Shown here: positions 4,671 through 57,273 of the stretch, piece by piece | Layout of the letters: every line of letters begins with the position of its first letter | How positions within the stretch are numbered: the stretch's first letter is position 1 | NCBI RefSeq assembly: GCF_965641715.1 | Contig: NZ_OZ282453.1 | DNA: 64,000 nucleotides | Source: Escherichia coli | GTDB lineage: Bacteria > Pseudomonadota > Gammaproteobacteria > Enterobacterales > Enterobacteriaceae | Direction: 5' to 3' (one strand) | Translations under genes and position numbers: made by a program | Notes under the pieces: generated by a model | Told to the model about the DNA's origin: nothing | What the model saw: the letters and a program-made list of their open reading frames with translations, nothing else | Database searches by the model: none

Positions 4671-5882
4671 ATGCTTACCACCCTTATTTATCGTAGCCAT
4701 ATACGTGACGACGAACCTGTCAAAAAAATCGAAGAAATGGTTTCGATAGCAAATCGCAGGAACATGCAGTCTGACGTAACAGGGATCTTACTGTTTAATG
4801 GTTCTCATTTTTTCCAGCTTCTGGAAGGTCCGGAAGAACAGGTTAAAATGATATATCGGGCTATATGCCAGGATCCACGGCACTATAATATTGTTGAGCT
4901 GCTGTGCGATTACGCGCCTGCTCGCCGTTTTGGCAAAGCGGGAATGGAATTATTTGATTTACGCCTGCACGAGCGAGATGACGTTTTACAGGCCGTATTC
5001 GACAAAGGCACATCAAAATTTCAGCTAACTTATGATGACAGAGCGCTACAATTTTTTCGTACTTTTGTCCTTGCAACCGAACAATCAACCTATTTCGAGA
5101 TTCCTGCTGAAGACTCCTGGCTTTTTATCGCTGACGGATCTGATAAAGAACTTGATTCCTGTACCCTTTCACCAAATATAAACGACCACTTTGCCTTTCA
5201 TCCTATTGTTGATCCCTTATCGCGGCGGATAATCGCTTTTGAAGCCATTGTGCAAAAAAATGAAGACAGCCCGTCAGCTATAGCGGTTGGGCAGCGTAAA
5301 GACGGGGAAATCTACACAGCGGATCTCAAAAGTAAGGCGCTTGTATTCGCGATGGCACACACACTTGAGCTCGGTGATAAAATGATATCTATCAATCTAT
5401 TACCTATGACCCTGGTTAACGAGCCTGACGCAGTCTCTTTTTTACTTGATGAAATAAAGGCCAATGGTCTGGTGCCTGAACAAATCATCGTTGAATTTAC
5501 TGAAAGTGAAGTCATATCTCGGTTTGATGAGTTTGCCGAAGCGGTTAAATCGCTAAAGGCTGCCGGTATCAGTGTAGCAATTGATCATTTTGGCGCAGGT
5601 TTTGCTGGTTTGTTACTCCTGTCACGCTTCCAGCCTGACAGAATTAAAATCAGTCAGGAATTGATTACCAATGTTCATAAAAGCGGACCACGGCAGGCAA
5701 TTATTCAGGCGATCATAAAATGCTGTACATCACTTGAAATTCAAGTCTCTGCTATGGGCGTGGCAACACCAGAAGAGTGGATGTGGCTTGAATCCGCAGG
5801 AATTGAGATGTTTCAGGGGGATCTGTTTGCTAAAGCTAAATTGAATGGTATCCCTTCAGTTGCGTGGCCAGAAAAAAAATAA
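4671..5882 (+). CDS. bluF: Blue-light sensor BLUF-EAL protein
   Basis: ORF 4593-5882; BLUF domain (YRSHIRDD...GILLFNGSHFFQLLEGPEE) plus degenerate EAL domain; likely start MLTTLIYRS. Confidence 0.85.
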   Translation: MLTTLIYRSHIRDDEPVKKIEEMVSIANRRNMQSDVTGILLFNGSHFFQLLEGPEEQVKMIYRAICQDPRHYNIVELLCDYAPARRFGKAGMELFDLRLHERDDVLQAVFDKGTSKFQLTYDDRALQFFRTFVLATEQSTYFEIPAEDSWLFIADGSDKELDSCTLSPNINDHFAFHPIVDPLSRRIIAFEAIVQKNEDSPSAIAVGQRKDGEIYTADLKSKALVFAMAHTLELGDKMISINLLPMTLVNEPDAVSFLLDEIKANGLVPEQIIVEFTESEVISRFDEFAEAVKSLKAAGISVAIDHFGAGFAGLLLLSRFQPDRIKISQELITNVHKSGPRQAIIQAIIKCCTSLEIQVSAMGVATPEEWMWLESAGIEMFQGDLFAKAKLNGIPSVAWPEKK

Positions 5883-5990
5883 TTTTCAGCACATGATTTC
5901 AGTAAATCATCGTGAAAATGAATACGTTATGTTTTAATTTAATCCACATTAAAAATAATGTTTCATCCAATTTAGCTGAAATCTTATTTA

Positions 5991-6026
5991 TACTTTGTAC
6001 AATTTTAGCGTATATTGTACAAAGTA
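5991..6026. promoter_or_regulatory. Perfect 13-bp inverted repeat TACTTTGTACAAT-N10-ATTGTACAAAGTA upstream of bluR; candidate MerR-type operator
   Basis: Read directly: 5991-6003 and 6014-6026 are exact reverse complements separated by 10 bp, about 50 bp upstream of the bluR start. Confidence 0.4.
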
Positions 6027-6076
6027 TTATTGGGTCGTGTACAGGCGACGGAGATTTGTGACCGCAAGGAGGAATT

Positions 6077-6808
6077 GTGGCTTATTACAGCATTGGTGAT
6101 GTTGCTGAACGTTGCGGGATTAATCCTGTCACTCTCCGGGCCTGGCAACGCCGCTACGGTTTGTTAAAACCACAGCGCAGTGAAGGCGGACACCGACTCT
6201 TTGATGAAGAAGACATACAACGTATCGAAGAGATCAAGCGTTGGATAAGTAATGGCGTCCCTGTAGGCAAAGTTAAAGCATTACTGGAAACCACCAGCCA
6301 GGATACGGAAGATGACTGGAGCCGCTTGCAAGAAGAGATGATGTCAATTCTTCGTATGGCTAATCCTGCCAAACTACGCGCGAGAATTATTTCACTGGGT
6401 CGAGAGTACCCAGTAGATCAATTGATTAATCATGTTTACCTTCCTGTTCGCCAGCGTCTCGTGCTTGATCACAACACCTCCCGCATTATGAGCAGTATGT
6501 TTGACGGCGCACTAATTGAATACGCAGCAGCCTCGCTTTTCGAAATGCGCCGTAAGCCCGGTAAAGAAGCCATTCTGATGGCATGGAATGTTGAAGAGAG
6601 AGCACGATTGTGGCTGGAAGCATGGCGTTTATCATTGTCAGGATGGCACATTTCTGTTCTTGCTGATCCCATTGAATCGCCGCGCCCGGAACTGTTCCCG
6701 ACGCAAACATTGATTGTCTGGACAGGCATGGCACCAACGAGAAGGCAAAACGAACTTTTACAACACTGGGGTGAGCAAGGTTATAAAGTCATCTTTCATG
6801 CCCCCTAA
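6077..6808 (+). CDS. bluR: MerR-family repressor BluR (YcgE)
   Basis: 243 aa; N-terminal MerR HTH ([29 protein letters not shown]); synteny next to bluF. Confidence 0.85.
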
Positions 6809-7028
6809 TTTCACCTTTATCCCGCCCCTTAGACAGAATGTTATAATCTGAACCCACAACAGCATTTGTACCGGAGCTGGTCCGTTGCAAAATGCTCACC
6901 GGGAGAATTCAGGTAATCCCTCTATCACACTCTGTACATATCACAGCCAAAGGACAGACCAGATTGAAGTGGTAAAACCGATCGTGCACACTACGCAGTC
7001 TCACAACTAACAAGAGGTTATTATCCTG

Positions 7029-7433
7029 ATGGATCAGGTCGTTGTTTTTCAAAAGATGTTTGAGCAAGTGAGAAAAGAGCAAAACTTCTCCTGGTTTTAT
7101 TCAGAATTAAAACATCACCGTATTGCACATTACATTTATTATCTGGCTACGGATAACATCAGAATTATTACTCACGATGACACGGTTTTGTTATTAAGAG
7201 GAACCAGGAACCTGTTAAAAGTTAGTACGACCAAGAACCCTGCTAAAATAAAAGAGGCCGCATTGCTTCATATTTGCGGAAAATCTACATTTCGGGAATA
7301 CTGTTCAACACTGGCAGGCGCGGGCGTTTTCCGTTGGGTTACTGATGTTAATCATAACAAACGCAGTTACTACGCCATTGATAATACTCTTTTATATATT
7401 GAAGATGTAGAAAATAATAAACCATTAATCTAG
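7029..7433 (+). CDS. ycgX: YcgX (DUF1398-like) protein
   Basis: 134-aa ORF; synteny. Confidence 0.65.
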   Translation: MDQVVVFQKMFEQVRKEQNFSWFYSELKHHRIAHYIYYLATDNIRIITHDDTVLLLRGTRNLLKVSTTKNPAKIKEAALLHICGKSTFREYCSTLAGAGVFRWVTDVNHNKRSYYAIDNTLLYIEDVENNKPLI

Positions 7434-40458: not shown

Positions 40459-41195
40459 TTAAAGCGAGCGGATGCCCACGCTGACCAGATGTTCAGACAG
40501 ATCCGGCTCCGGTTCACCACCATTGACCAGCATCCGGCTCATTGCTGTAAACATCGCAACAGGGCCGTCGATTTTGGCTTCCAGCGTGGATTTATTCGGG
40601 AAGATATTGTCGTTTTTGTCCGGTTTTACCGTAACGTTAGACATCATCCAGTTCATGACCGGATGATTGCTGTGATGGAAACGCCCGGCATAGACCAGTG
40701 ATTCCGTTTCCTTCATGGCCTCTGACAGATTGCGAACCGTCTGCGGAACCTCCACCAGCGGTATCCCTTCTTCAGCCAGTGCCAGGCTGAACTGCATCGC
40801 GCTCCACGGGTCAAATCCCAGCTCCCTGAGGTTTTCACCACCAATCCATTCCAGTAAGTCACTTTTTATCTGAGCATGATCGATAACATCACCATCCGTC
40901 AGAATCAGCTTATCCATCTCCGCCCACTTCCGGTAAAGTTCTGCCTGCTGCCGCGAGCATCGTTCCAGCCGTCCTTCCGGAAGCCAGAATTTAAAATCGG
41001 CATGAACATGCCCGTTATCCGTTCGCCAGAGTTTTGCCGCCGCACAGATATCAATCTTATGAGCAAGGTCAACGCCGACCCACATGGGATACGTTTTCAG
41101 CTCATGTCGTGGGGCAATGTATTCGCACTTCTCCCACTTAATCATGTCCATCCAGGCAGACTCTGCTGTTACCCACACATTCATGTGTTTTGTGA
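40459..41195 (-). pseudogene. Prophage terminase large subunit, C-terminal fragment, separated from its N-terminal part by the satellite insertion
   Basis: 241-aa ORF MNVWVTAESAWMDMIKWEKC... aligns residue-for-residue with the middle of the satellite TerL (NIWCQGATPWMGNGAWAEC...). Confidence 0.8.
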
Positions 41196-41714: not shown

Positions 41715-43376
41715 TTACACACCATCAAACGTCGCAAGCCGCTCTTTGTGGCTGTCGCTCATATCGAATGCAAATTCCTCATGCTCTGCCTGGAATGTGC
41801 CAAACGCCATCAGCGCCGCAACGCTCGGGTCTATCTTGTTGGATGATTTTTTCTTGTTCGGCTTGATATTGGCGTTCGCGTCACTCTGCATCACAACATT
41901 ACTCATTGACCAGGCCAGCACCGGATCACCACGATGCACAATCACCTTCCGGTTAACAAAAACTTCGAACGATTTCGCCGCCGGACTGAAACGAAGGTAC
42001 GTTTGCGGGAACGGCTCCACCTCAAATCCCGCCCCCTGTAGCTGTGTTCTCAGGTGAGTGGCGTTCCATGTATCGAAGCCCACCAGCCTGATACTGAAAT
42101 TCTCTGCATCCACCATGATGTCATCACGGATACGGTCATAATCAATGCAGTCACCCGGTGTTGTGCGTATCCAGCCCGCCTTTACCCACTGGCGATAAAT
42201 GGCGCGGTTTTTATTGGCGGGGTTCTGTAACTGAAATTCCGGCAGATAGTGACGGGAAACCAGCATAATCTTTTTACCGACCGGAAAGGCATAGCACACG
42301 CTGGAAATATCGCTGGTTGATGATAAGTCCAGCCCCACGTAGCACTCCTGCCCGTATAAATCCGCCTCCGCGAACGTTCCGGCGCACTCCGCCCATGCAC
42401 CGTTACCCATCCACGGCGTAGCCCCCTGACACCAGATATTGAATCGCTTGGTGAGCATTTCCACCCACTGCGACGGAATACCCCGCGCTTTCTGGATGGT
42501 TGAGGCCAGTTTTTCACGATCGACGGAAACATCGATATTGGGATTCGCCTTTATCCACATCGCCGGATCGTCAACCTCGCTTTCATCATCCAGCTCGTAA
42601 ATCAGTACGAACATGGATTCGTTCACCTCTTCACCATCCAGTATCTGGCAGCAATAGTCGTAGTGTTGTTTACAGGCTGAAACAACGTTGCTCCCCGATG
42701 TGGTGATGGCAAATAATAACCCCTCCGGACGCGCCCCCATTCCCAGTTCAAGCGCGGAATAAACCCCGTTGTCAGGGTGCAGGTGATATTCATCTACAAT
42801 GGCAAGACTCGGGTTTGTACCTTCAATGGTTGCCGCTTTTGCTGCCAGTGGCTTTAACAGGCTGTTGGTTTTCGGGTGTATCACCTTGTGTGCCTGAATA
42901 TTTACCCGCTTTCGTAACGGTCGGGATAAAAGGCACATCTGACGCGCATCATCAAACACGATCCGCGCCTGATCACGACTCACGGCGGCGGTGTAAATAT
43001 CCTGCTGCCCGTTTTCCATAACCAGAAACCAGTTAGCCAGGATAGCGGCGACCGTGGATTTGGCATTTTTTCGCGGTACTTCAATGAATGCGCTGGTGTA
43101 TTTGCGCCGTCCGGTGGCCTTAACCTTAAAGCCCAGGATGCACGCAAAGGCGAACTGCTGCCACGGCTCCAGCTCAATGGGGCTACCGCGCATTGCGCCT
43201 TTTACGTGCGGACACACCCTGGAAAAGGCAATAAACTGCTCCACGACCTCCGGATCGAACGTGTAAAGGGGGTTTTCAAGGTCAGAAAAATACCGTTTAA
43301 CGGCCTGTTTCAGTCGTTTACAGGCCGTAATTTTGCCGTTTTTTACGCCTTCTGCGTACTCATGCCAGGCGGTCAA
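41715..43376 (-). CDS. Terminase large subunit (satellite copy, intact)
   Basis: 553 aa; ATPase and nuclease regions; homologous to but diverged from the interrupted prophage TerL. Confidence 0.9.
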   Translation of the reverse strand: MTAWHEYAEGVKNGKITACKRLKQAVKRYFSDLENPLYTFDPEVVEQFIAFSRVCPHVKGAMRGSPIELEPWQQFAFACILGFKVKATGRRKYTSAFIEVPRKNAKSTVAAILANWFLVMENGQQDIYTAAVSRDQARIVFDDARQMCLLSRPLRKRVNIQAHKVIHPKTNSLLKPLAAKAATIEGTNPSLAIVDEYHLHPDNGVYSALELGMGARPEGLLFAITTSGSNVVSACKQHYDYCCQILDGEEVNESMFVLIYELDDESEVDDPAMWIKANPNIDVSVDREKLASTIQKARGIPSQWVEMLTKRFNIWCQGATPWMGNGAWAECAGTFAEADLYGQECYVGLDLSSTSDISSVCYAFPVGKKIMLVSRHYLPEFQLQNPANKNRAIYRQWVKAGWIRTTPGDCIDYDRIRDDIMVDAENFSIRLVGFDTWNATHLRTQLQGAGFEVEPFPQTYLRFSPAAKSFEVFVNRKVIVHRGDPVLAWSMSNVVMQSDANANIKPNKKKSSNKIDPSVAALMAFGTFQAEHEEFAFDMSDSHKERLATFDGV

Positions 43377-46567: not shown

Positions 46568-47737
46568 CTAGCCAGCTTTCATTTCCAGAATTTTGATGGC
46601 GTTTGAATCCACCACACCACCGCCCAGATATTTATCCGTGTGGACCTTGTAGAATCCGGGCTCAGTAATGTTGTCCGGTCGGGTGCGAATCCCTGTTACA
46701 TGATCAACGATGAAATAACCACGACTGAAATCGCCAACCGCTAGCGGTGCTTTTCCTGCGCCGATGTCCGGCATGGACTCCAGGCAGAAAACAGGACGAC
46801 CAAGCAACATATCCGGCGCACCTTCTTTAAGGCTGTCGCGCCAGATATAATCGCCATTCTCATTTTTCAGCTTCTGTAGTGTCCCTGCCGTGCCCGAGTT
46901 CATCACCCAGACGGCATTTTTGCGGTATTTCGCTTTCAGCTTGTAGAGAATGTCGATCAGTTCGTCCGCTGTAATGGCGGTTCCACTTGCCGCTACCACT
47001 TTTTCAATGGTGCCAAAAGCGCGGGTTTTGTCACTGGTCGCCGCACGGGTGTAAGCCATGAAGCCTTTCGGCTTGCCGTTACCGTCGCCATTAACAAAAT
47101 CATCCTCTTCGGTGCTGGCGAACGTGTCGGCAATTTCGGAGGATAACCAGCCCAGAATATCCACCTCTGAAAAATCCAGGATTTCCTGCGTGGTTTTCGG
47201 GTAGGCGTAGATCGGATTCAGCTTGATGGTTACACGTTCAATTTTCGGGGTGTTGGTTTCACTACGTGCGCAGCCTTCTGTGCCTCGTCCTACAGTTGCG
47301 CCGCCAGTGGAAACCAGTTTCTGAAACTCATTTGATTTTGCGGTCTTCACGGTCGCGATCACGCGCATAACACTGTCATCCTGTAGCTGGCGCATGACTT
47401 CGCGATCAAGCTCAGGAATTACGGTATATCCGCCATCCCTGCCGCTGTCAGTGCTGGTGGACAGTGATCGCACATCTCCGGTTACGATGTAGTTACGCAA
47501 TTCATCAGATGATAATTTCTGGATGCCCGTTCCTGGCTTGCTGCGTTCTTCATCAGCCACAGACTCGAGGCGGTAAATTTCTGTGTCGAGGGAATCGGCT
47601 TTTGCACGCAGTTCATCAAACTGTTTGCCCTCGTCATCGTTCAGGCTGCGGTTTTCACTGTCGGCTTTTTCCAGCAGGGATCGCATCTGGTTTTTCAGGG
47701 CGGTTTTTTGCTGGCGGAGTTCGATTAATTTCTTCAT
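46568..47737 (-). CDS. Major capsid protein, HK97 family (satellite copy)
   Basis: 389 aa; coiled-coil delta domain; GDGNGKPKGF motif; diverged from prophage copy. Confidence 0.9.
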   Translation of the reverse strand: MKKLIELRQQKTALKNQMRSLLEKADSENRSLNDDEGKQFDELRAKADSLDTEIYRLESVADEERSKPGTGIQKLSSDELRNYIVTGDVRSLSTSTDSGRDGGYTVIPELDREVMRQLQDDSVMRVIATVKTAKSNEFQKLVSTGGATVGRGTEGCARSETNTPKIERVTIKLNPIYAYPKTTQEILDFSEVDILGWLSSEIADTFASTEEDDFVNGDGNGKPKGFMAYTRAATSDKTRAFGTIEKVVAASGTAITADELIDILYKLKAKYRKNAVWVMNSGTAGTLQKLKNENGDYIWRDSLKEGAPDMLLGRPVFCLESMPDIGAGKAPLAVGDFSRGYFIVDHVTGIRTRPDNITEPGFYKVHTDKYLGGGVVDSNAIKILEMKAG

Positions 47738-47973
47738 GAAGGTTTTCTCGTATTGGTTAAGATTCAGGACGTGAAACCAACACGGAGGGAGCGCCGCCCG
47801 ACACTCTCGGCATCTCGCAGATCAACCCGGCATCGCGCAGGGGGTCAGGCGGCATTGTGGCGGCTCACGTCTGAGTGCCACACGCCAACATATACATAAA
47901 AATCAGTATGTAAACATCAGCCAGAATCACCGAACAACCTGGAACAACCACGAACAAATAATTTACAAAACCT

Positions 47974-48000
47974 GAAAAAAAGACCTGGAGAAAATCCAGG
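47974..48000 (-). terminator. Rho-independent terminator separating the satellite replication block from its capsid operon
   Basis: Hairpin CCTGGA-gaaaa-TCCAGG followed on the minus strand by TCTTTTTTT; lies between the 82-aa ORF and the capsid gene. Confidence 0.5.
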
Positions 48001-48011
48001 CCTTTATCGCT

Positions 48012-48260
48012 TTATTGTTTCACTGGATCCCGCATTCTGCGTCTTATTTTCCACAGATATTCGATCATCGCTTCCACCTGCTCACGATTGGTTGCGAAAA
48101 TTTCCCCGGTCAGTGAGCTGCGCAGAAAATCATGATGATCCACAACAAACAACGCATCGGAAGAAAGCAGACGGCGATATTTTTTTGCTGTCGTGGTTTC
48201 CAGATCATCAAAACCATGAAACTTTTTATGTTGCTGGACTTCTTCAAATGTCACTGGCAT
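48012..48260 (-). CDS. Hypothetical small protein
   Basis: 82-aa ORF MPVTFEEVQQHKKFHGFDDLETT... Confidence 0.4.
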   Translation of the reverse strand: MPVTFEEVQQHKKFHGFDDLETTTAKKYRRLLSSDALFVVDHHDFLRSSLTGEIFATNREQVEAMIEYLWKIRRRMRDPVKQ

Positions 48261-48793
48261 GTATCCCCCTTTGCCGCCCGGCGCTGGCGCTTGTGCTTCT
48301 CATTCAGCGCCATCAGCCGCGTTTCTGCCTCCTGCTGTTCCTGTGGTGTCACTTCCCCACATGGCTGGCCTTTCAGGTCGTATCGTACCCCACCAGCAAC
48401 CAGGGCGCGGTAATAGCGCGGAGACTGCGCATAAGATGCCAGCGTCGCACGTAATGCCCCCGGCCCGAATGCCAGCCCCCTGACGGCGAGATCCTGCATC
48501 AGGTCGTCGAATATCCCCACCTTAAGCGGCTTCGGTGCTTCCCTGTTGAATAAGTCAGGCCACATCTCAGTGAGGCGGTTAACGCGCCTGCGGTTTTTGC
48601 GCTGGCGTTTGGTCATATGCCGCCACGGTGTCACCCCTGTGGGCTGCCCTTTGCGGCTCTGCTGTGCGTTCTGATTGCCGGGTATCACTTTATGCGCCGA
48701 TGTGGTTTTATCCCGCTCTTGCGCCGCCTGCGTCGTTTTCTGCGGCGTGCCGTAAATGCCTTTCGGTTTTCGGTTAATGGTCAGCTTTGTCAT
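48251..48793 (-). CDS. FinO/ProQ-domain RNA-binding protein (putative)
   Basis: 180 aa; PLKVGIFDDLMQDL...RATLASYAQSPRYYRALVAGGVRYDLKGQPCGEVT matches the ProQ/FinO N-domain pattern from memory. Confidence 0.55.
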   Translation of the reverse strand: MTKLTINRKPKGIYGTPQKTTQAAQERDKTTSAHKVIPGNQNAQQSRKGQPTGVTPWRHMTKRQRKNRRRVNRLTEMWPDLFNREAPKPLKVGIFDDLMQDLAVRGLAFGPGALRATLASYAQSPRYYRALVAGGVRYDLKGQPCGEVTPQEQQEAETRLMALNEKHKRQRRAAKGDTCQ

Positions 48794-48957
48794 GCCTTCC
48801 CCTGTAATTACTCTGTTCGCTGTTGTGAATTAAAACGGTATGTTATCCCCGTACAGGTCATCGTGCTGGCCTGTCTGTTGTTTTGCCCTGTTCAGTGCGT
48901 CAGTGGCCTGCCCCTGTTGGCCTTTTTTGCCGCCCGGTCGCGCCGTTCTCGCACTGA

Positions 48958-49254
48958 TTACGCTGTCTGCGATGACCTGCCAGCCCTGCCGCGTTTCGCC
49001 GTTCTGCCCTGTCCACTGCTTACCTGCATGTTACCCGCCACGCTCACCAGTTCGCCTTTGCGGTGTTTTGCCAGTGCGTCGGCCTGTCTGCCAAACGCCA
49101 GGACGGATAACCACATCGTCGCCGTTCCGTCATCTGCCTGGCTGCATGGCAGGGGAACCGCCATACTCGCCATCGCCATTTGTGTTCCCTTGCTGGTGGT
49201 CTTTAACTGCGGGTCAGCCACCAGCCGCCCGTAAGCCGCTATCTGTGCTGTCAT
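48958..49254 (-). CDS. SSB-like OB-fold protein (short)
   Basis: 98 aa; GRLVADPQLKTTSKGTQMAMASMAV...WLSVLAFGRQADALAKHRKGELVSVAGNMQ follows the SSB OB-fold pattern. Confidence 0.4.
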   Translation of the reverse strand: MTAQIAAYGRLVADPQLKTTSKGTQMAMASMAVPLPCSQADDGTATMWLSVLAFGRQADALAKHRKGELVSVAGNMQVSSGQGRTAKRGRAGRSSQTA

Positions 49255-49317
49255 GCTGTCTGCTCTCCGGTTTTAACGTTGATGGTTACGCTTGTTTACA
49301 CCCTTACGGTGAAATTC

Positions 49318-49442
49318 TGCGGGTTATAATCGCACTTTTGCGGGTTATAACTGCCGTTTTGCGGGTTACGTGCGGGTTATTGATTTCCTTTTTATTCATA
49401 CAGTTAATGCACTTATATACATGATAACCCGCATAACCCGCA
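49318..49442. repeat. Iteron cluster A (candidate satellite replication origin): four direct TGCGGGTTAT-like copies, an AT-rich spacer, two inverted copies
   Basis: Direct copies at 49318, 49339, 49359, 49371; inverted ATAACCCGCATAACCCGCAA at 49423-49442; immediately 3' of the primase gene. Confidence 0.65.
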
Positions 49443-49464
49443 ACTTTTCACCTCACACAGGGGG

Positions 49465-51588
49465 TTAATCTTCTGCCTCAGGCTGGAACATCAGCACGTA
49501 AAAAACATGCTGCTTCCCCCCAATTTTGCCGAGCGCCTTTTTCTTGTAACGGCGATCGTTACCCGCTTCCAGCATTCCGGCAGCACTCAACGCGCGGGCA
49601 AAGTGAGACGGATTAAATCCCTGTGCTATCTCACCCTCAAATACATGCGGGAACGTGTAAAAACGGAACTCGTCATCTTCGTTTCTGATACTCCCCTTTC
49701 TGTATCCGGCAAGTTCTTTAATCGATAAATCACGCTCGTCGGTATTGGGCCACGGAAGGTATCTGCTGAATCCGAACGACGCTAAAAAAGCTTCTGCCTG
49801 TTCAACCATCTGTTTAAATTCCCTGTTACCCGTGCCGAACTCCTTCACCCAGGCATTAAAATTATGCTGTATGGCATCGCGGCATTCCTGCTCATCCCAG
49901 CCAGTAACATGACCTGAAAGCACAAGCGCGGCCTCCAGTATGGCAAATCGCTCCCCCACACGGTGAACCTGTTCGCCGTAGCTCTCCGGTATCAGGTTGC
50001 GCCACCGCTCACGGCATGTCCTTACCGTGTCCTTTGCCTCCTGCTGGTGTTCTGCCAGCCATTTAACCCACTCACGACCCGCCGCCCCGTGATTTTCTGT
50101 CCAGGCATCCTTTAACGCGTCTGCGTGCGCCTTTCCGGTGCTGTATTCGTGAAATTGCGTGGCTTTTTCCATCGGAACGTTAAGCAGGCGGACAAGCTGC
50201 CCCGCTTTGACTTTTATCCCCTCCGTTTTGAGGAATGTCTCAACGTCCATTTCTCCGGTGCTGATTGCCACCGTGCGCCAGTGTTTGATCTCCCTGTTGC
50301 CGCCGTCCTTCGCCCCCTGTAATTTCCCCGAACCGTTAAACAGCGTATAGGCTGACGTGGACACCTCCCGCGCGTTTCCGGCCTGGCCTATTTCATCCAG
50401 GGGTAAAAGCCCGTCATTGTGTGCCTCTGCTTCGTTGGCGATACCTAACGCTGTGCCGTACCAGGTCAGCCGCTGCGCGTCCGGCTCTCCCCATAAACTT
50501 GATGCGATGTTCTGTGTGGTGGTTTTCCCTGCCGATGACTGTTCGAAAAGATGTACCCCGAAGCCGTCAGCGCCCACCAGCCCGATTAATGGTGCGGATA
50601 ACGATACCGCCACACCCAGCATCATGGACGGATTACCACCAGCCAGCCGCGCAACGGTATCGCGCCAGCCCTCCGCCGTTCCTGCCACGGAATAGCCATT
50701 AACAGCAGCCGTTTTTCCGGTAAACAGGACTGGCTTTTCGCAATCACCAATGACCGAACCGTCCGGCATGATGTACGCGCCAAAATGCCAGCCCGTTGTT
50801 GTGCTTAACTGCCATTCCTCATGGCTTCCGCTTAACTGCATCCAGTCAGCCAGGATAGCCCTGTATTTACCGTTGGTTGTTACGTTCAGTCCGTGGTCTT
50901 TCAGCAACCGCCAGCCGTCACGGTCGCCAATGCCACCGCACGGAACCGCCATTGTGATGACTTCATGGTTTGCTAATTTTTTCCAGCGCATCACGCGGTA
51001 ATGCTCTTTACCGATTGTCCCCGTTCCCAGTAGTTCAAGCGGGGAACATAACCACGTCTCAGGCCGGATAATTTCGCCTGACTGCTTATCCACTTTTGGC
51101 GTTACCCAGAAAACACCATCGGCGCGACTTTCAACGCGGGGCTTTAATTCATCATCGCCCTGGATTTCTGTGATTTTTTTCTTTAAGGGCAACACCAGAC
51201 TTTCCCCGCGCTCGTATTCGTCTTTGAGGCGAGGCAACTGGTCGGATAAATCCGCCGGGCTGATGTCAGTTATCCCCGCGTATTCGTATACGGTCTTCAC
51301 GCCAGCCACAGCCAGCAACGTGACGATCTGTGTAAGGCTACGTTCAGTGATGTGCCCTGCGCGGTAAACACGCACACACTGACGGCTATCATCAATAATT
51401 TGATAACCGGTAATATCTTTCAGGTGTTCATCTGACAGAACGACAGGCGGCACATTGTCGGCGGCAATATGCTTACCTGCCCATTCCTGCCACTCTTTCG
51501 CATGGCTCCACGCATCACTACCCGCAAAGATGATAACCTCCGTCATTTTGTCGGCTGGCTGGTGCTTTAAGTTTGGTGCGCGCTTCAT
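49465..51588 (-). CDS. Replication primase/helicase with P-loop NTPase
   Basis: 707 aa; Walker A-like SSAGKTT; largest non-structural gene; adjacent to iterons. Confidence 0.75.
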   Translation of the reverse strand: MKRAPNLKHQPADKMTEVIIFAGSDAWSHAKEWQEWAGKHIAADNVPPVVLSDEHLKDITGYQIIDDSRQCVRVYRAGHITERSLTQIVTLLAVAGVKTVYEYAGITDISPADLSDQLPRLKDEYERGESLVLPLKKKITEIQGDDELKPRVESRADGVFWVTPKVDKQSGEIIRPETWLCSPLELLGTGTIGKEHYRVMRWKKLANHEVITMAVPCGGIGDRDGWRLLKDHGLNVTTNGKYRAILADWMQLSGSHEEWQLSTTTGWHFGAYIMPDGSVIGDCEKPVLFTGKTAAVNGYSVAGTAEGWRDTVARLAGGNPSMMLGVAVSLSAPLIGLVGADGFGVHLFEQSSAGKTTTQNIASSLWGEPDAQRLTWYGTALGIANEAEAHNDGLLPLDEIGQAGNAREVSTSAYTLFNGSGKLQGAKDGGNREIKHWRTVAISTGEMDVETFLKTEGIKVKAGQLVRLLNVPMEKATQFHEYSTGKAHADALKDAWTENHGAAGREWVKWLAEHQQEAKDTVRTCRERWRNLIPESYGEQVHRVGERFAILEAALVLSGHVTGWDEQECRDAIQHNFNAWVKEFGTGNREFKQMVEQAEAFLASFGFSRYLPWPNTDERDLSIKELAGYRKGSIRNEDDEFRFYTFPHVFEGEIAQGFNPSHFARALSAAGMLEAGNDRRYKKKALGKIGGKQHVFYVLMFQPEAED

Positions 51589-51899
51589 TTTGCCTTTCCC
51601 CGTTCACGAATAATTTCACGTACTGCCTTAATGCGTTCCATTCCTGTAACGCGCATGATTCTGTCGATGTCGCTTAATTCTGCTGGTGGTGCTTTACTTA
51701 CCAAGGTGAACTCCCTGTCAAAGCGCATATGTGACGACACGCAGGGATGCGCATAACCTTCGCGGATATAGGTCACACGAAAATCATCGACGGTTTTGAT
51801 CGTTATCGTGCTGCCGTATTTATCCTGGAAAATATCGCCGGGGCGGATTTCAGGCCGAGCGGGGCCGCTGGCAGTAAAGCCAGAATTTTTCTTTTTCAT
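51585..51899 (-). CDS. Hypothetical protein
   Basis: 104-aa ORF directly upstream of and overlapping the primase start. Confidence 0.45.
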   Translation of the reverse strand: MKKKNSGFTASGPARPEIRPGDIFQDKYGSTITIKTVDDFRVTYIREGYAHPCVSSHMRFDREFTLVSKAPPAELSDIDRIMRVTGMERIKAVREIIRERGKAK

Positions 51900-51904
51900 G
51901 TTTT

Positions 51905-52153
51905 TTACTCCAGAGGCAGCTTTTTAGCGGCGAGCTCAATATCAGATGTCAGAGAAACCTGTGTATTTGCCAGGTCTAACAACAAAGAAATAAGAATTTC
52001 TTCTCTGCTATCGGATTTATCGGTGCTAAGGCTGTTCATCCACATATTGACGACTTCCCTGATTTTTTTCGCAGAGTGCAGGGCTTCAAATGCCAGGTCT
52101 TCAATATCATGTTTATTTCGCATAATCGCCCCCGCCATTTTCACAATCAGCAA
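51905..52153 (-). CDS. Hypothetical small protein
   Basis: 82-aa ORF. Confidence 0.35.
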   Translation of the reverse strand: MLIVKMAGAIMRNKHDIEDLAFEALHSAKKIREVVNMWMNSLSTDKSDSREEILISLLLDLANTQVSLTSDIELAAKKLPLE

Positions 52154-52358
52154 TCAGGATGGCTTTTGCCTCATTCAGCGCCATATCAGCACTAAATTGC
52201 ATAACAGCCAGTGAGTGAGGAACGAAAGCCCCGGCATATTCTGTTTCGCTGGTGGCGTGCTTATGCGCCTTGTCTGCGATAACAGAAATATCAATCAGCG
52301 CGTGCATCAGCGTTTTGATGGCTTCGGCGGCTGCGTCCGGACGGGTGTTATTGCACAT
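52113..52358 (-). CDS. Hypothetical small protein
   Basis: 81-aa ORF. Confidence 0.35.
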   Translation of the reverse strand: MCNNTRPDAAAEAIKTLMHALIDISVIADKAHKHATSETEYAGAFVPHSLAVMQFSADMALNEAKAILIADCENGGGDYAK

Positions 52359-52554
52359 GGCGCACCTCCTGACGAATACGGGCAGCGAATACCATCACGC
52401 AGCCAGCCGGGGATTGCTGGCGTGCTTCCTGTTCGCTAGTGGCCTCAATGGTAATCACACGCGGTTGTGCCGTGCTCAGGGCGATAAAACGCCAGATGTA
52501 TTTATTCAGGTTGTGCGAGTCCCGCCCTTGCGGGTGTGTGGTATGATTTAACAT
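52348..52554 (-). CDS. Small Icd-like protein (putative host cell division inhibitor family)
   Basis: ATG at 52554 with GAGGT ribosome-binding site 7 nt upstream; 68 aa ending ...SEQEARQQ...FAARIRQEVRHVQ; family assignment is from memory. Confidence 0.45.
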   Translation of the reverse strand: MLNHTTHPQGRDSHNLNKYIWRFIALSTAQPRVITIEATSEQEARQQSPAGCVMVFAARIRQEVRHVQ

Positions 52555-52750
52555 AGCTACCTCGATAATCTTGCTATCGTTGGTGGTTAGAAGCCCGGTT
52601 AGTGTTAGCGCACTGCCGGGTTTCGTCGTTTGTATTTCAATAAAACCATTGGTGTGTTTCATGTTATTTTGGAGTGAAACACACGTCAAGCCTTTTTTGT
52701 ATTTCTTTTTTGTGTATACTGAAACACACCAAATTTGAGGAGTTTCAGTT

Positions 52751-53056
52751 ATGGCGACTACCAACAAAAACGCTAAATCACAATTGACCACCGTCAGAGT
52801 CCCCCACGATGTTATGGAGGGCATGGAATCCGTAAAACTGGACGGCGAAAGCAACGCCGGATTCATAGTAACCGCCATGCGCGGTGAGATCGCCCGCCGC
52901 CAGGCAGAAGGAAGCGGAGAAAATCCCCTGGTTTCTTCGCTCGATGCACTGGCGCAGGTGGAAAAAATTGGAGTCAAGGCTGCCGAGGAGATCGGGCAAC
53001 TCGTCACCGTCGCGCGTGAAGAACTCCAGCGACGCAAGGTCAAAGAGCAGGAATAG
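52751..53056 (+). CDS. Putative transcriptional regulator, divergently transcribed
   Basis: ATG at 52751 with GAGGA ribosome-binding site 9 nt upstream; 101 aa; only confident plus-strand gene in the satellite. Confidence 0.55.
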   Translation: MATTNKNAKSQLTTVRVPHDVMEGMESVKLDGESNAGFIVTAMRGEIARRQAEGSGENPLVSSLDALAQVEKIGVKAAEEIGQLVTVAREELQRRKVKEQE

Positions 53057-53113
53057 CCACTATCAGCGCCATAGTTTGAGGAACGCAGGCGCATTGCTTT
53101 ACAGGACAGCACC

Positions 53114-53293
53114 ATGAGCGACACAGAATCAACCAAAACACCATCACCAACTCGTAAGAGACGACGCAAAAATATAGCGCATGAACATGAATCAGAAAGA
53201 TTCGCACCTTGTTCGTTTGCTCTTGAGAAATTCCTTAAAGAGCACAGGAAAAAGCTCTCGTTGCAAACCTTGGAACGAACCAAATCTGACTGA
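53114..53293 (+). CDS. Small basic protein (possible)
   Basis: 59-aa ORF MSDTESTKTPSPTRKRRRKN... below the ORF-track cutoff; followed by terminators. Confidence 0.3.
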   Translation: MSDTESTKTPSPTRKRRRKNIAHEHESERFAPCSFALEKFLKEHRKKLSLQTLERTKSD

Positions 53294-53358
53294 TCACATT
53301 GCCCACCAGCCGCAAATGTGGCATTGTTGGTGATGCTTTTGTTTTCCCTTGTTCCCAC

Positions 53359-53388
53359 TGGCGACCCTTTTGCGGTCGCCTTTGTTTT
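53359..53388 (+). terminator. Rho-independent terminator of the plus-strand cassette
   Basis: Hairpin GGCGACC-cttttgc-GGTCGCC followed by TTTGTTTTG; a second hairpin plus T-run at about 53484-53515. Confidence 0.45.
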
Positions 53389-53673
53389 GCCTGTTATCCG
53401 GCAATAGTGGCGCTTCGTCACCTGTCTGATATAATTCCACAGCTTATATTCATTTTTTGCGCAGTAGGTTAATTGTTCGCAAGGGCGCTCCGGCAACGGG
53501 GCGCTTTTTGTTTTTACCCACCAGCACAATAAAAATCTTCATTTTCCATTTTTGTAAAATTTCATGCTTTCCGGACGACTGGTCATATGTCATTTTTTAG
53601 CAGAAGATTTTGCCTTGCTGGTGGGTAGCTTCCCGGTCAACACGATGTACCGTATAATCAACACCGCGTGTGG

Positions 53674-54252
53674 TTACTGAATACGCTCACCAAAGTAAAA
53701 CTCAGGCTGGTATTCACGTATCAGCCTTTTTTCTTCTTCCTCCAGCTCACGCTTTTTGCGCTTACATGCCTGTAGCTCCCTCCCCTTCTCACTGGCACTT
53801 ATCTGGTATTGCTCTTTGCGGCGGGAAAAATCCTGTAATGCGCCCCACGGGATACCATAAGCCCCCGTTTTTCTGATACCCGGTATCACATTTCTGAATA
53901 CCCAGTTACTGAAACGATGAGCAAATGTGCCAGGCGTCGTTGCTTTGCGGCTGCGGGCTATTAGTTTGTAGAAACCTGACTCGGAGATAATGCTCATATT
54001 CTGATTTCCTCCGGGGGTGTAAGTTAAATTTACTCCCTTTTCGTCATCATCAAGCATCTGCAACGCCGTACGCGAATTGGTCAATTCCAGCGCAGCACAA
54101 ACATCCTTTGCAACAAACCACGGATCGCCGTTTAGATACACCACACGAACATCCACGCCATCAAAGCGCAGAACGACCAGATCACGAATATCACAGAATT
54201 TTTTCACATGACGTGCGTCACCCTTGCCCGTCACGGCAATATTTTTATTCAT
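53674..54252 (-). CDS. Bro-N domain protein (antirepressor-like)
   Basis: 192 aa; Bro-N pattern RVVYLNGDPWFVAKDVCAALEL...ISESGFYKLIARSRK; C-terminal charged coiled coil. Confidence 0.65.
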   Translation of the reverse strand: MNKNIAVTGKGDARHVKKFCDIRDLVVLRFDGVDVRVVYLNGDPWFVAKDVCAALELTNSRTALQMLDDDEKGVNLTYTPGGNQNMSIISESGFYKLIARSRKATTPGTFAHRFSNWVFRNVIPGIRKTGAYGIPWGALQDFSRRKEQYQISASEKGRELQACKRKKRELEEEEKRLIREYQPEFYFGERIQ

Positions 54253-54309
54253 TGCTTTTTACCTCACATACAAAAAACCCCGCATTGCGTGGTGCGGGGT
54301 TGTCGGTAA

Positions 54310-54588
54310 TTACTTATTGGCGTTTTTGTATGGGCTGTTTACTTCCTTTACTCCTGGCGGATGCATAACCCACCAGAGCACATCAGAGAGCAACCAGGAA
54401 ACAGACACTTTCCCTAAATGAGCACGAGCAGGAAATGCTCCCTCCTGTTCAAGTACCCAACGTCTGCTTCTTGAAAGCCCGGTACGATTGGCACACTCAT
54501 GTTCGCGTATACGGCGATCATACGGTTCGCCATGATCTTTCAGAATCTGAATGCGTTCTTCGGGTGTAGGATAAATAAATTTTTGCAT
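54310..54588 (-). CDS. AlpA-like HTH regulator (second copy)
   Basis: ORF 54310-54618; HTH region ECANRTGLSRSRRWVLEQEGAFPARAHLG. Confidence 0.5.
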   Translation of the reverse strand: MQKFIYPTPEERIQILKDHGEPYDRRIREHECANRTGLSRSRRWVLEQEGAFPARAHLGKVSVSWLLSDVLWWVMHPPGVKEVNSPYKNANK

Positions 54589-54651
54589 AAAAATATCACC
54601 TATAAAAAAACCCGCCAAAAGACGGGTTGATTATATCTCATTTAATTTAGC

Positions 54652-54822
54652 TCAGGGTTTCCATTCACCTTTTACCCATTCCAGCACCTCAGATAAGCGC
54701 CAGACTTTTGTTTGTGGGCCAATACATATTTTTCGTGGAAATTTTCCTTCCTTTTCAAGTAACGATCTGTGTCTCCTGCCAAGAGCGGTTAACCATGCAC
54801 ATTCATCCTCCTTAATCATCCT
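54652..54822 (-). CDS. alpA: AlpA-family excisionase/regulator
   Basis: ORF 54652-54885; HTH WLTALGRRHRSLLEKEGKFPRKICIGPQTKVW; directly downstream of int. Confidence 0.65.
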   Translation of the reverse strand, partial: RMIKEDECAWLTALGRRHRSLLEKEGKFPRKICIGPQTKVWRLSEVLEWVKGEWKP

Positions 54823-54850
54823 GTCGATTGTTTCATCATTTTCAAGTTCT

Positions 54851-56074
54851 TCACGCGTAACTATTTGAATCATTACTGTCACCACTAATTTGCTTATTCA
54901 GATAGTCGTACCACCAGTTCATAGCTTCTTTTTTTCTGTCCATATACTGGCTTCTGTTATAAACCCCGGCAACACCGCCTAATGTGTGCCCAAGCAACTG
55001 TTCAACCACATTATGTTCAAAACCATGATCACTTAGTTTTGTGGCAAACACTCTTCGCATATCATGCGCCGTCCATTTCTCCGAGTGTTTCATCCTTTTC
55101 CATGTCTTACCGATAGTTACGCTTGCCGTACACTGACGCATATCAAACCCAATCACATTTTCTTTGTTACCTGTTATTTTTTTTAACGTAACTAACCAGT
55201 TAAACATGCCATCAGGAATCGGTCTGATTATTTCCCTGCCATTTTTGCTATGATCAGCGGGAACGCGCCATAATTTCTTATCAAAATCCCACTCTACCCA
55301 GGACGACAGTAATACTTCTGACAGTCGACAACCAAAAACTACCAGGAAACGTAAAATAATTCGGTTTTCATATGATAATTCGTGATTGTCATAATCAGTA
55401 TTAATACTTCGCCATAAATCTCTGATTTCATCATCTGTTAAAACCCTGCTTCTTCGCGCAGACTTTTTTCCCACATCACAGACCTCAAGATCATCAATTT
55501 CATGACTAATCGCGTATTTTCTTACCCTACAAAATTTAAGCGCCTGTTTTGATATACGCAACAAAGCTCCGGCCTGTACAGGTGCTACTTTTTTTATTTT
55601 GTCAAAACACTTAATCCACATAGATATAGAGCAATCACTAAGTGGTACATGACCAATCACCGGATAAATATGTTTACCAAAGCACTGCCTGATATGTTCT
55701 GCTCCCCTACGCTTATCCATTGCATAATTATCAAGCCAGTATTCAAGTGCCTCACGAACGGTAACAGGTTGCAAGGTGGCTTCCCGTTCAATTTTTATCT
55801 GAATCCGTGGATCTCTGCCCTCCGCAAGCCAGGTTCGACACTGATCGCGCATCTCTCTCGCTGATTTGAGACTCAGATCAGGATATTTTCCAAGTGTCAG
55901 CCAGATGGGCGCGGTTCCCCTTCCCGCCAGTCTGTAAAAGAAAACAAAACTAACACATCCGTATTTACTGACCCGTACCGAAAGCCCGTTACCATCAGCG
56001 ATGGTTTCCTGCCTCTCACTCCTGCGCCCAAGCAGGGAACGAAGTTTTTTATCGCTCAGTTTGTTTAGCGCCAT
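54851..56074 (-). CDS. int: Tyrosine integrase, P4 type
   Basis: ORF 54851-56110; likely start MALNKLSDKKL; arm-binding N-domain; catalytic C-domain with HxxR and terminal Tyr region. Confidence 0.9.
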   Translation of the reverse strand: MALNKLSDKKLRSLLGRRSERQETIADGNGLSVRVSKYGCVSFVFFYRLAGRGTAPIWLTLGKYPDLSLKSAREMRDQCRTWLAEGRDPRIQIKIEREATLQPVTVREALEYWLDNYAMDKRRGAEHIRQCFGKHIYPVIGHVPLSDCSISMWIKCFDKIKKVAPVQAGALLRISKQALKFCRVRKYAISHEIDDLEVCDVGKKSARRSRVLTDDEIRDLWRSINTDYDNHELSYENRIILRFLVVFGCRLSEVLLSSWVEWDFDKKLWRVPADHSKNGREIIRPIPDGMFNWLVTLKKITGNKENVIGFDMRQCTASVTIGKTWKRMKHSEKWTAHDMRRVFATKLSDHGFEHNVVEQLLGHTLGGVAGVYNRSQYMDRKKEAMNWWYDYLNKQISGDSNDSNSYA

Positions 56075-56093
56075 GTGATTTATAACCCGTTTT

Positions 56094-56116
56094 TGCAATA
56101 CACAGTGCAATACACA
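56094..56116. repeat. Tandem TGCAATACACAG x2 near the satellite right end; candidate integrase arm site
   Basis: Same motif as 41271-41292; 20-40 bp upstream of the int start. Confidence 0.45.
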
Positions 56117-56245
56117 AATGATGAAAACAGCCAGAACCTTCCAGAAAAAACAAAAACGACGAACAAGAAAAAATCTTTTTCTTTCATTTGGTTACTAAAA
56201 AAATCAGGACAGGTCGCACTGTTGTTACGGCGTGATGTTACTTTC

Positions 56246-57273
56246 TTTGTGAAAAAATTCACCCGCGCCGAGACCTGCTCCTTCGCCTTTTTCGCCAGAC
56301 GACGCAGATCATCCCAGCGTTTACAGATGCCCAGGCCGGGATTCGCTTTCTGCCAGACCGTTTCATCAAACGGATCATCTCCCTCATCGAGCGTGTAAAT
56401 GATCGCAAAGTAAGAGTCGTCTTTTACCGCGCCCTCCACGTCACTGTTATAGCCACGCAATACCTTAATGGCGTAATCACGCTGCTCGTAACAAATCCCT
56501 TCCTTGTTAAACCCTGCCGTGGTGATACCAAATAAAAGGGACTGCAGACGGGCACCGGTTGCCGTTTCCAGAACGTCCCACACGTCACGGGTTTTATGTG
56601 CATGCAGCTCATCAATAATGGCGCAGTGGATGTTCAGACCGTCCAGGTTGTTTGCATCCGAGGAAAGCGGTTCAAATTTTGATGCGCTCTGCTCCTGGTA
56701 GATCGCCAGCTTGTTGAAATCAAATAACCGCCCGAGTGTCGACCGGGCTTTTCTGACCATATTTTTGGCGTCTTCAAACACGATTCTGGCCTGGTCACGC
56801 GTGGTTGCGGCTGAATACACCTCAGCTCCACCTTCACCATCTGCCCCCGTCATATACAGGCCGATACCCGATGACAGAGTTGATTTTGCGTTTTTACGGG
56901 CGACTTCGTTGTACGCCGTCCGGAACCGGCGCACCATCACCGGACGTCCGCTGCCATCGCTGCGCATGACAACTTCCCCGGTCTCTTCATTCACCAGCGG
57001 AATGACAAAACCAAAAATATTAATGAGGATAAATACATGCCAGTCCATCAACTCAATGGGCTGGCCTGCCAGCGCCCCTTTTACATGAGGCACAAATTTG
57101 TAGAAATTCAGGATGTGCTGCGCACGGGGTTCACTGAAATAAATCCCCCGCTCTTCGCCGTACTTCAGATCATCAAGAAAACGCTGGCAGGCCAGACGGA
57201 CAAATTCCCCAGCAACAATTTCTCCTGCAACAACACGTTCGGCGTAGCGGATCCCGTCAGCCACTTTTGCCAT
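56246..57273 (-). pseudogene. Prophage terminase large subunit, N-terminal fragment (about 343 codons), interrupted by the satellite
   Basis: ORF 56080-57273; terminase ATPase region through ...ARVNFFTKK, then non-terminase read-through into satellite DNA. Confidence 0.8.

Follow-up and report, generated by a model that had tools for sequence, protein, structure and literature searches.

A candidate immunity switch in the Bro zone of an Escherichia coli phage-inducible chromosomal island: a predicted ribbon-helix-helix repressor and a putative SymR-like antisense RNA

Phage-inducible chromosomal islands (PICIs) count among the commonest mobile elements of enterobacteria, and they move virulence and defence genes between strains. 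In the four-zone scheme given in the searched text of a previous description, a 'Bro zone' lies between the integration and the replication zones of these islands (PMC10111431), and helper sensing has been placed at the expression of alpA (PMC6092414). Here we analyse the control region (positions 51585-54252) of a satellite element that occupies around 41.7-56.1 kb on the minus strand of a window of 64,000 nucleotides, by which we mean the whole stretch of Escherichia coli DNA analysed (assembly GCF_965641715.1, contig NZ_OZ282453.1). This region is the 'Bro/immunity zone' of a Gram-negative PICI. The type of the element, its embedding in a prophage terL gene and the position of the region are already known, and what appears to be new here is the reading of the switch, not the common element itself. 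We consider it probable that the zone is an immunity/regulatory switch like the immI region of phage P22, in which a ribbon-helix-helix (RHH) repressor acts on four operator boxes together with an antisense RNA. For Gram-negative PICIs the repressor system has been described as unclear, and the protein and the RNA may together constitute it. An earlier reading, made from the sequence only, had proposed that this is a regulatory zone of a satellite and that its divergent cassette resembles a switch. Both proposals agree with our results, the zone corresponding to the 'Bro zone' mentioned above (PMC10111431), but that reading missed the RNA gene and the operator repeats, which are in the intergenic region 52555-52750.

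This divergent intergenic region of 196 bp separates a leftward operon, starting with a gene for an Icd-like protein, from a rightward cassette of two genes, the first of which encodes a 101-aa protein. It contains a back-to-back promoter pair (52640-52750) and three copies of the motif TGAAACACAC plus a degenerate fourth copy. The leftward promoter, P_left (52661-52689, minus strand), has the -35 TTGACG (52689-52684), a 17-nt spacer and the -10 TAACAT (52666-52661); it was the only sigma-70-like site found in 51400-54950 and it points into the operon that goes from the Icd-like gene to the primase gene. Box O1 (52649-52661, TTGGTGTGTTTCA; inverted repeats I4 and I10) overlaps the -10/start of P_left, and box O2 (52675-52684, TGAAACACAC) is located in the spacer of P_left, abutting its -35. 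Box O3 (52696-52705, TTTGTATTTC) is the degenerate copy, and it changes with the type of the protein (GTGATTC, GTAAGAC and others). Finally, box O4 (52720-52732, TGAAACACACCAA) is found directly after the rightward -10 TATACT (52715-52720) and is likely to be the site of autoregulation.

The relation of the boxes to the protein was examined in 24 loci of around 10 genera, which comprised loci with variant beta-strands, 18 loci found by scanning a single genome of each species and the prototype EcCICFT073. There are 3-4 boxes per locus, at around -98, -76, -53 and -31 from the ATG and in alternating orientation in the loci whose spacing was measured, that is, the boxes are spaced by around 22-23 bp. 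A conserved scaffold lies between them, namely GTCAA (the leftward -35 TTGAC) and TATAnT (the rightward -10), and the GTCAA core of P_left has the same position in most of the loci. Within each locus all the boxes change together and the promoter scaffold stays fixed.

Furthermore, each distinct type of beta-strand in the protein has its own box sequence at these fixed positions. The strand SQLTTVRVP goes with the box GAAACACAC, SQMTTVRIP with GAAATACAC, SQSLTARIP with CTTACAC, SKQISIRIP with AATCACAC, SQ(L/V)KN(I/V)RIP with AAATACACAC, SQIKNVRVP with AATGCACAC, SQQIVSRVP with ATGCCAC, SAKKNIRFP with TGTGCGCACA and, in EcCICFT073, SQALKARVP with GTGGCCCAC. One type can be shared by E. coli, Xenorhabdus and Photorhabdus, although the proteins are only around 75% identical overall. 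When 22 non-redundant loci were scored, the core of O4 had on average 1.05 mismatches to the O1-O2 region of its own locus, 0.31 to that of other loci with the same type and 2.39 to that of loci with a different type, these co-variation counts being not fully independent because same-type loci are partly related by descent. The sequences of the putative operator half-sites thus track the residues of the predicted beta-strand, as would be expected of an RHH protein. The arginine R16 is invariant in the protein and CAC is invariant in the boxes, which would fit the usual way in which RHH proteins read DNA, with one conserved contact and several specificity contacts. The type of the leader and the type of the RHH protein probably recombine independently, since the loci L002 and L003 have the same RHH protein and boxes with a different hairpin 1 of the RNA and a different N-terminus of the Icd-like protein.

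Regarding the protein itself, the 101-aa product (52751-53056, plus strand; GAGGAG 8 nt upstream of the ATG) is the candidate PICI repressor. It belongs to the YlcI/YnfO family, whose N-terminal domain model NF041551 it matches over residues 9-50 with 69.3 bits (cutoff 30), and it has 235 relatives across Enterobacterales, some of which are labelled as Arc-like or CopG in some sources. When 30 homologs were aligned, high conservation was seen in the C-terminal half, and residues 11-15 and parts of the first helix varied in discrete types. We predict an N-terminal RHH domain (around aa 10-55) followed by a conserved C-terminal helical domain (around aa 57-100). The AlphaFold2 (AF2) model of the monomer consists of two helices and a long C-terminal helix, with no strand. 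RHH proteins form their sheet only as dimers and therefore we built a model of two N-terminal domains connected through a linker of 15 residues, with a paired alignment. In this linked dimer AF2 draws strand (10-18), helix (19-28) and helix (35-55) twice, with a predicted local distance difference test (pLDDT) of around 90 in the core and a predicted template modelling score (pTM) of 0.71. Its best Foldseek matches in the PDB were chains of around 110 residues from the F-plasmid relaxosome (probability 1.0, TM around 0.6, E 0.02), which we take to be TraY, whose RHH units occur naturally in tandem, the name of the chain being our own assumption. In addition, hhalign places LTTVRVPHDV in register with QFNLRWPREV of Arc (P = 0.004) and HFNFRMPMEV of Mnt (P between 0.004 and 0.05 in these comparisons), and the sequence has a G-E-S-N motif at the start of helix B. 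The protein is therefore likely to have an Arc/Mnt-type RHH fold, as far as the models can tell. The sequence-only reading had found no function to assign to any of the small proteins and had suggested remote-homology searches and structure prediction. The lack of an assignable function stands for the 59-, 72- and 81-aa proteins. For the 101-aa protein, on which both kinds of analysis were run, they point to an RHH-like linked dimer in the Arc/Mnt register, that is, to a putative DNA-binding protein with cognate sites, the searches with the monomer being null.

The C-terminal part deserves a separate comment. Residues 57-101 are far more conserved than the half predicted to read the DNA and AF2 draws them as one long helix; they may serve for oligomerisation, sensing or a second contact with DNA. 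Short forms of 59-62 aa without this half are found in EcCICFT073, Serratia, Xenorhabdus and Samsonia. A match of this part to the helix-hairpin-helix of Hef in a PDB sequence search was marginal (E 0.018) and we do not rely on it.

The second component is a predicted, unannotated cis-antisense RNA of around 85 nt (52555-52640, plus strand), with two hairpins and a U-rich tail after the second one. It is complementary to the 5' untranslated region, the Shine-Dalgarno sequence and the start-codon region of the mRNA for the Icd-like protein (68 aa, 52348-52554, minus strand), the first leftward cistron, which has GAGGT 5 nt upstream of its ATG, matches NF033153 with 69.8 bits (cutoff 25) and is nearly identical to its counterpart in EcCICFT073. 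A scan of 47000-57000 with Rfam gave a single match, to SymR, at 52555-52627 on the plus strand, right after the complement of the Icd-like start codon, with 33.6 bits and a local E of 7.9e-5, which is below the gathering score of 61. The C4 and isrK covariance models gave no match at E up to 1 in the same interval.

In an alignment of 21 loci, 98.1% of the cells of the two-hairpin structure were paired, 9 of the 18 base pairs had changed on both sides and none of 500 shuffles equalled this result, and as a control, sliding the partners by 1-3 columns lowered the pairing to around 40%. The G·U cells also tell the strand, because 37 of them are valid on the plus strand only and none on the minus strand only. 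Likewise, the minimum free energy was -35.4 kcal/mol (z -5.1) for the plus strand and -20.4 kcal/mol (z -2.7) for the minus strand. The architecture of this stretch is conserved in all the loci. A putative -10 of its promoter, TGgTATGAT (52542-52547, plus strand), lies inside the first codons of the Icd-like gene and ends 7 nt before the predicted 5' end of the RNA. The pattern T-A-n-n-n-T is present at the same offset in the loci that we inspected (TATGAT, TATGCT, TATAAT and TAGACT), and in the natural TATAAT variant the codon that it overlaps encodes Tyr in place of His.

We used the alignment to build a covariance model (R1), which found the held-out copies of EcCICFT073 (72 bits; NC_004431, around 1380765-1380853) and Serratia oryzae (70 bits). 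When 18 kb of E. coli K-12 were searched with it, the annotated symR was the only significant match (24.6 bits, E 3.5e-4). Since each model finds the other RNA, we regard the RNA as a reciprocal but distant relative of SymR, lying at the same place with respect to the start codon of its target. It shares the layout of SymR, being a cis-antisense RNA next to the start codon of its target with two hairpins, the second of them terminator-like. However, we do not file it as SymR because the score is below the Rfam threshold and the target is not SymE. Elsewhere in the element there is a gene for a 180-aa protein with a FinO/ProQ domain (48251-48793, minus strand; FinO E 8.9e-18 and ProQ E 8.1e-16, with both matches short of the ortholog cutoffs). 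Structured antisense RNAs that have terminator hairpins are bound by FinO-domain proteins, and the SymR-like RNA could therefore be a target of this protein. In a related E. coli copy of the PICI, a PerC gene is found in this area instead.

The RNA could also be read in a different way, as the antitoxin of a type I toxin-antitoxin system whose toxin is the Icd-like protein and which stabilises the island or causes an abortive arrest, the RHH protein being minor and AlpA the main switch. The RNA does resemble the type I antitoxin SymR in its sequence, its structure and its place with respect to the start codon, and its target belongs to the Icd-like family, whose namesake, Icd of phage P1, inhibits cell division. 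However, the first cistron varies among the loci, being an Icd-like protein of 66-68 aa, a 121-aa protein or a Phage_ASH protein of 209-257 aa, and yet both the RNA and the rest of the operon down to the primase are kept; thus, the RNA appears to gate the operon and not one toxin. Moreover, a type I system leaves the diversification of the RHH and box specificities unexplained. The role of AlpA does agree with it, since AlpA is the inducer that was required experimentally (PMC6092414). Altogether, we regard this explanation as unlikely.

The reading that we prefer, that is, repressor plus antisense RNA, would work as follows. The rightward promoter would express the 101-aa RHH protein and then its 59-aa partner, and the RHH protein would bind the four boxes (of the TGAAACACAC type here), which are evenly spaced at around 22-23 bp. 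Occupancy of O1 and O2 would cover the -10/start of P_left and the spacer next to its -35, so that the genes for the Icd-like, 81-aa, 72-aa and DUF4222 proteins and the primase would be switched off, and O3 and O4, at the protein's own promoter, would give autoregulation. As a second lock, the RNA of around 85 nt would be made constitutively from inside the first Icd-like codons and would prevent the first cistron from being translated; given the overlaps of the genes downstream, their expression would be lowered as well, by coupling or polarity. The types of beta-strand and box would then define immunity groups among co-resident PICIs. The lock would most likely be opened by strong leftward transcription that reads through from alpA and the late operon of the helper, which would be antisense to the cassette, bypass P_left and titrate the RNA, and which would have to pass the minus-strand terminators found after each alpA gene. 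Alternatively, Bro-N or a helper protein may act on the conserved C-terminal domain of the repressor.

The genes, the repeats, the co-variation of protein and boxes, and the structure and strand of the RNA are what the analysis, which is computational throughout, shows. Several points weigh against the proposed switch, besides the partial relatedness of the loci of the same type. DNA binding, repression of P_left, promoter activity, expression of the RNA and opening of the lock are all predicted. By published genetics AlpA, an activator, is the essential inducer, and no phenotype of constitutive replication, which would point to a repressor, has been reported (PMC6092414). As for the fold, Pfam gave no significant RHH family for the 101-aa protein (the best was PSK_trans_fac, E 0.062) and no significant match came from the fold searches made with the model of the monomer, while the PDB match of the linked dimer has an E of only 0.02 and the RHH hypothesis guided the design of that construct. 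A good -35 is missing from the rightward promoter, the SymR match is below the gathering score, and the putative -10 of the RNA overlaps conserved codons and therefore its conservation is ambiguous, as it may be due to either the coding sequence or the promoter.

The second gene of the cassette encodes a basic protein of 59 aa (53114-53293, plus strand; phrog_21027) and is preceded by an AGGA-type Shine-Dalgarno sequence. Its family has the conserved core E..F..P..FALE.F.K and comprises 29 clusters, all of them from Escherichia and named hypothetical, and the protein has no match in Pfam. Homologs occupy the same position in EcCICFT073 and in the loci L001, L002, L003 and L006, and where present they always follow the RHH gene. 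The cassette could also be read as a type II toxin-antitoxin-like addiction module, with the RHH protein as autoregulating antitoxin, the 59-aa protein as toxin and the effect on the leftward genes as incidental. Nevertheless, a conserved pair with a recognisable toxin is not what we found: the family is restricted to Escherichia and is missing in most of the Xenorhabdus, Photorhabdus, Serratia, Erwinia and Pantoea loci that keep the RHH gene, the boxes and the RNA, and the protein matches no toxin family in Pfam, NCBIfam, PHROGs or PADLOC. Furthermore, two of the four boxes are on the leftward promoter and not on the protein's own one, and in EcCICFT073 short RHH forms without the C-terminal domain coexist with the second gene. 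We consider such a module improbable.

Two terminators follow on the plus strand. The first one (53360-53380) is conserved in EcCICFT073 and L006, and the stem of the second one (53481-53508) co-varies between loci. The latter is part of a conserved 3' element (53427-53517, plus strand), which also contains an extended -10, TGATATAAT (53427-53435), and an invariant 20-mer, GCGCAGTAGGTTAATTGTTC (53459-53478). This element is present in every E. coli locus with the 59-aa family, including EcCICFT073, and the part at 53441-53517 may be a second small RNA. A simple complementarity search with this part found no target, its folding z was only -1.7 and it had no match in Rfam.

The leftward operon continues after the Icd-like gene with an 81-aa ORF (open reading frame; 52113-52358), a 72-aa ORF (51905-52123), the gene for a 104-aa DUF4222 protein (51585-51899; Pfam PF13973, E 4.7e-18) and, as the distal gene, the DUF927-type primase/helicase (49465-51588; phrog_1139 DNA primase, E 4e-173; annotated as DUF927 in L001 by PGAP, the NCBI annotation pipeline), all of them on the minus strand. 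The consecutive genes overlap at 52358/52348, 52123/52113 and 51588/51585, the stop codon of the DUF4222 gene overlapping the start of the primase gene (ATGA), and therefore we consider that they form one tightly coupled operon including the primase. The 81-aa protein matches phrog_2512 and phrog_5146 (E around 1e-33), both families without function, and had only noise in Pfam and no match in the PDB. The 72-aa protein had only weak matches to PHROG families without function and none in Pfam or the PDB. No sequence relatives were found in the PDB for the Icd-like, DUF4222 and Bro-N proteins either. DUF4222 is found directly upstream of three different types of primase/helicase in other PICIs, and because it is always just before the primase, whatever its type, its position suggests an accessory role in replication.

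All the ORFs listed in the sequence-only reading are present in the ORF list at those positions. The Bro-N protein that it named, of 192 aa and anti-repressor type (53674-54252, minus strand), is supported by Pfam (Bro-N, E 1.4e-19) and by phrog_2593 (anti-repressor, E 7e-86), and the plus-strand cassette does have its ribosome-binding sites (GAGGAG and AGGA-type) and its two terminators. The cassette genes were described as the only plus-strand genes of the element, which holds in the window, whereas a related E. coli copy has an extra plus-strand coding sequence near the capsid gene. The four small minus-strand ORFs exist and one of them is Icd-like (NF033153), but the 82-aa call, which starts at the TTG at 52153, is better replaced by the 72-aa form. 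We prefer the latter, from the ATG at 52123, because PGAP calls it in the near-identical E. coli locus (L001) and because it gives an overlap of 11 nt with the upstream gene, like that of its neighbour.

It was also suggested that this position often holds cargo, and the block could be mainly accessory or anti-phage cargo, with the small ORFs and Bro-N interfering with the helper or with competing phages. In favour of this, defence genes are carried by PICIs at the 5' end (PMC11364771). Furthermore, Bro-N proteins are annotated as anti-repressors, EcCICFT073 interferes with lambda by means of genes not yet named, and other loci have variable genes between alpA and the cassette. However, PADLOC-DB v2 gave no match to any defence model for the seven proteins of the block, only weak matches related to alpA being found, and therefore we dropped the defence reading. 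In the literature the hotspots for defence genes in PICIs are the 5' end, the 3' end and the site downstream of pri (PMC11364771). Moreover, the small minus-strand ORFs have a conserved order, overlap and are coupled to the primase across primase types, which is typical of core genes and not of cargo. Thus, the general statement about the position is fair, as the variable genes of other loci show, but here the slot contains only Bro-N, and cargo as the main role of the block is very improbable.

Strong intrinsic terminators on the minus strand follow each of the alpA genes, one between the two alpA genes (54609-54628) and the other one between the second alpA and Bro-N (54276-54301). Bro-N and the genes downstream would therefore need read-through or antitermination in order to be expressed from there. 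The AlpA of Pseudomonas is a processive antiterminator (PMC7969949). By analogy, antitermination by the AlpA of PICIs would explain these terminators, although this is a lead only.

The rest of the element agrees with what has been described before. The gene order is int, two alpA genes, Bro-N, the plus-strand cassette, the genes from the Icd-like one to DUF4222 and the DUF927-type primase. Downstream of the primase there are genes for a protein similar to single-stranded DNA-binding proteins, the FinO/ProQ-domain protein, capsid, protease and portal, followed by others as far as TerL. The annotation of E. coli NZ_OZ501612 shows this layout; the element, with these annotated genes, is present in an E. 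coli chromosome at 98% identity over 88% of the block. In keeping with a capsid-forming PICI (cf-PICI), int, alpA and pri are co-oriented, the element has its own capsid, protease, portal, HNH, TerS and TerL genes, and it has no tail genes. Given this and the near-identical annotated E. coli element, we assign it to the cf-PICIs of the EcCIEDL933 type (10.1101/2022.09.08.507074).

The element's own complete TerL is at 41715-43376, and the terL gene of the prophage is split around it. The N-terminal part of the latter (56080-57273) abuts the integrase gene and the C-terminal part (40459-41184) is found beyond the element's TerL, all of them on the minus strand. The split occurs around the peptide ...ARVNF(F/L)TK(K/H)..., and the exact repeat that we found is of 11 nt only. 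In L001 a terL pseudogene also adjoins int. Since the parts of the prophage terL flank the element on both sides in the same orientation, this is also a helper-embedded PICI (HE-PICI; Tommasini et al., PMC10111431). In two other E. coli loci (L004 and L005, around 4660-7300) PICIs with the same RHH module lie beside a truncated lambda-type major capsid gene (Phage_cap_E, 91 aa), together with genes for a head decoration protein and an S49 protease; these are further helper-embedded insertions, at the capsid-gene site as in Tommasini et al.

The module is widespread. The segment with the Icd-like gene and the RNA was found in 1333 of 5426 complete E. coli genomes, that is, about a quarter, with up to 6 copies per genome, and the prototype EcCICFT073 carries the same module. 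The block gave no megablast match in a phage collection.

A bolder and more tentative proposal, to which we would give rather less than an even chance, is that Gram-negative PICIs have a master repressor in the form of a two-layer, immI-like system. It would consist of a hyper-diversified Arc/Mnt-like RHH protein of the YlcI/YnfO family, with four operators of its own for every specificity type, and a SymR-like RNA. It would silence the replication operon, define heteroimmunity groups among the PICIs of one cell and be overridden in cis by helper late or AlpA-driven read-through; ylcI, ynfO and symR of K-12 would be its domesticated or stranded relatives, and the FinO/ProQ-domain protein may be a chaperone of the RNA. 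Stand-alone relatives of two genes of the block, namely ynfO and a DUF4222 gene, occur in lambdoid prophages of CFT073 (L028, 3100-3333, and L026, 5192-5431), the DUF4222 gene lying beside an excisionase gene. The prophage ynfO, of the YlcI/YnfO family, is divergent from the terminase small-subunit gene near cos, and the PICI RNA model found no copy beside it.

The switch described here would give the uncharacterised YlcI/YnfO family a function, and SymR would become one member of a larger group of satellite RNAs. From the specificity types one could classify the immunity groups of PICIs and predict which PICIs can coexist. Furthermore, a candidate repressor, its operators, a readable specificity and an antisense RNA would make the question of the repressor simply testable, also in EcCICFT073. 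In the literature searched, with incomplete coverage, we found no prior description of the YlcI/YnfO gene, its operators or the SymR-like RNA in PICIs.

Comparing with the known systems, the whole element fits both the HE-PICIs and the cf-PICIs (Tommasini et al. 2023; Alqurainy et al. 2022/2023), with its zones of int and alpA, Bro, replication and late genes. The co-oriented insertion in a prophage terminase gene is also as in those descriptions, whereas the divergent YlcI/YnfO gene, its operators and the SymR-like RNA are not described in the parts of their text that could be searched.

The Stl-Str switch of the SaPIs and other Gram-positive PICIs is similar in that the pair of divergent regulatory genes has int on one side and the replication module on the other, the repressor is oriented away from the pri operon and there are many specificity variants. 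However, the Stl proteins are larger helix-turn-helix repressors and not RHH proteins, and here AlpA is additionally required. In the case of Stl, derepression by helper proteins has been demonstrated.

The immunity regions of P4 (kil/eta-CI RNA-eps-alpha) and P1 (c4 RNA-icd-ant) also have an operon that is controlled by a small RNA and starts with an Icd-like or Ash gene, and in P4 it leads to the primase alpha. To our knowledge, P4 has no protein repressor. The RNA differs too, since there is no match to C4 or isrK here and the RNA acts as a cis-antisense one would, whereas theirs is processed from the sense strand and acts on seqA/seqC. These phages and the Gram-negative PICIs share the same 'Bro zone' logic, according to the searched text of PMC10111431.

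The SymR/SymE pair of E. coli K-12 (RF01809, a type I antitoxin) resembles the present locus with regard to the RNA. Both RNAs have two hairpins, around 80 nt and a terminator-like end, and both start within a few nt of the start codon of their target on the opposite strand. Nevertheless, the target here is an Icd-like or Ash gene heading a replication operon, in a satellite and beside a putative RHH switch.

The closest functional analogue is the immI region of P22, with its RHH proteins Mnt and Arc, the divergent promoters Pant and Pmnt, the antisense RNA sar and the gene ant; the P22 side of this comparison is textbook knowledge. In both cases an RHH repressor, here a predicted one, with an extra C-terminal helix of the oligomerisation type, as in Mnt, is divergent from an operon that starts with a gene of the Bro/Ant network, the operators lie over back-to-back promoters and the gene under control has its ribosome-binding site covered by a short cis-antisense RNA. 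There are also differences, since the homology is not detectable beyond the RHH register (hhalign P 0.004-0.05), the boxes are four with a spacing of 22-23 bp, and the operon here ends in a primase and would therefore govern replication, not an anti-repressor alone.

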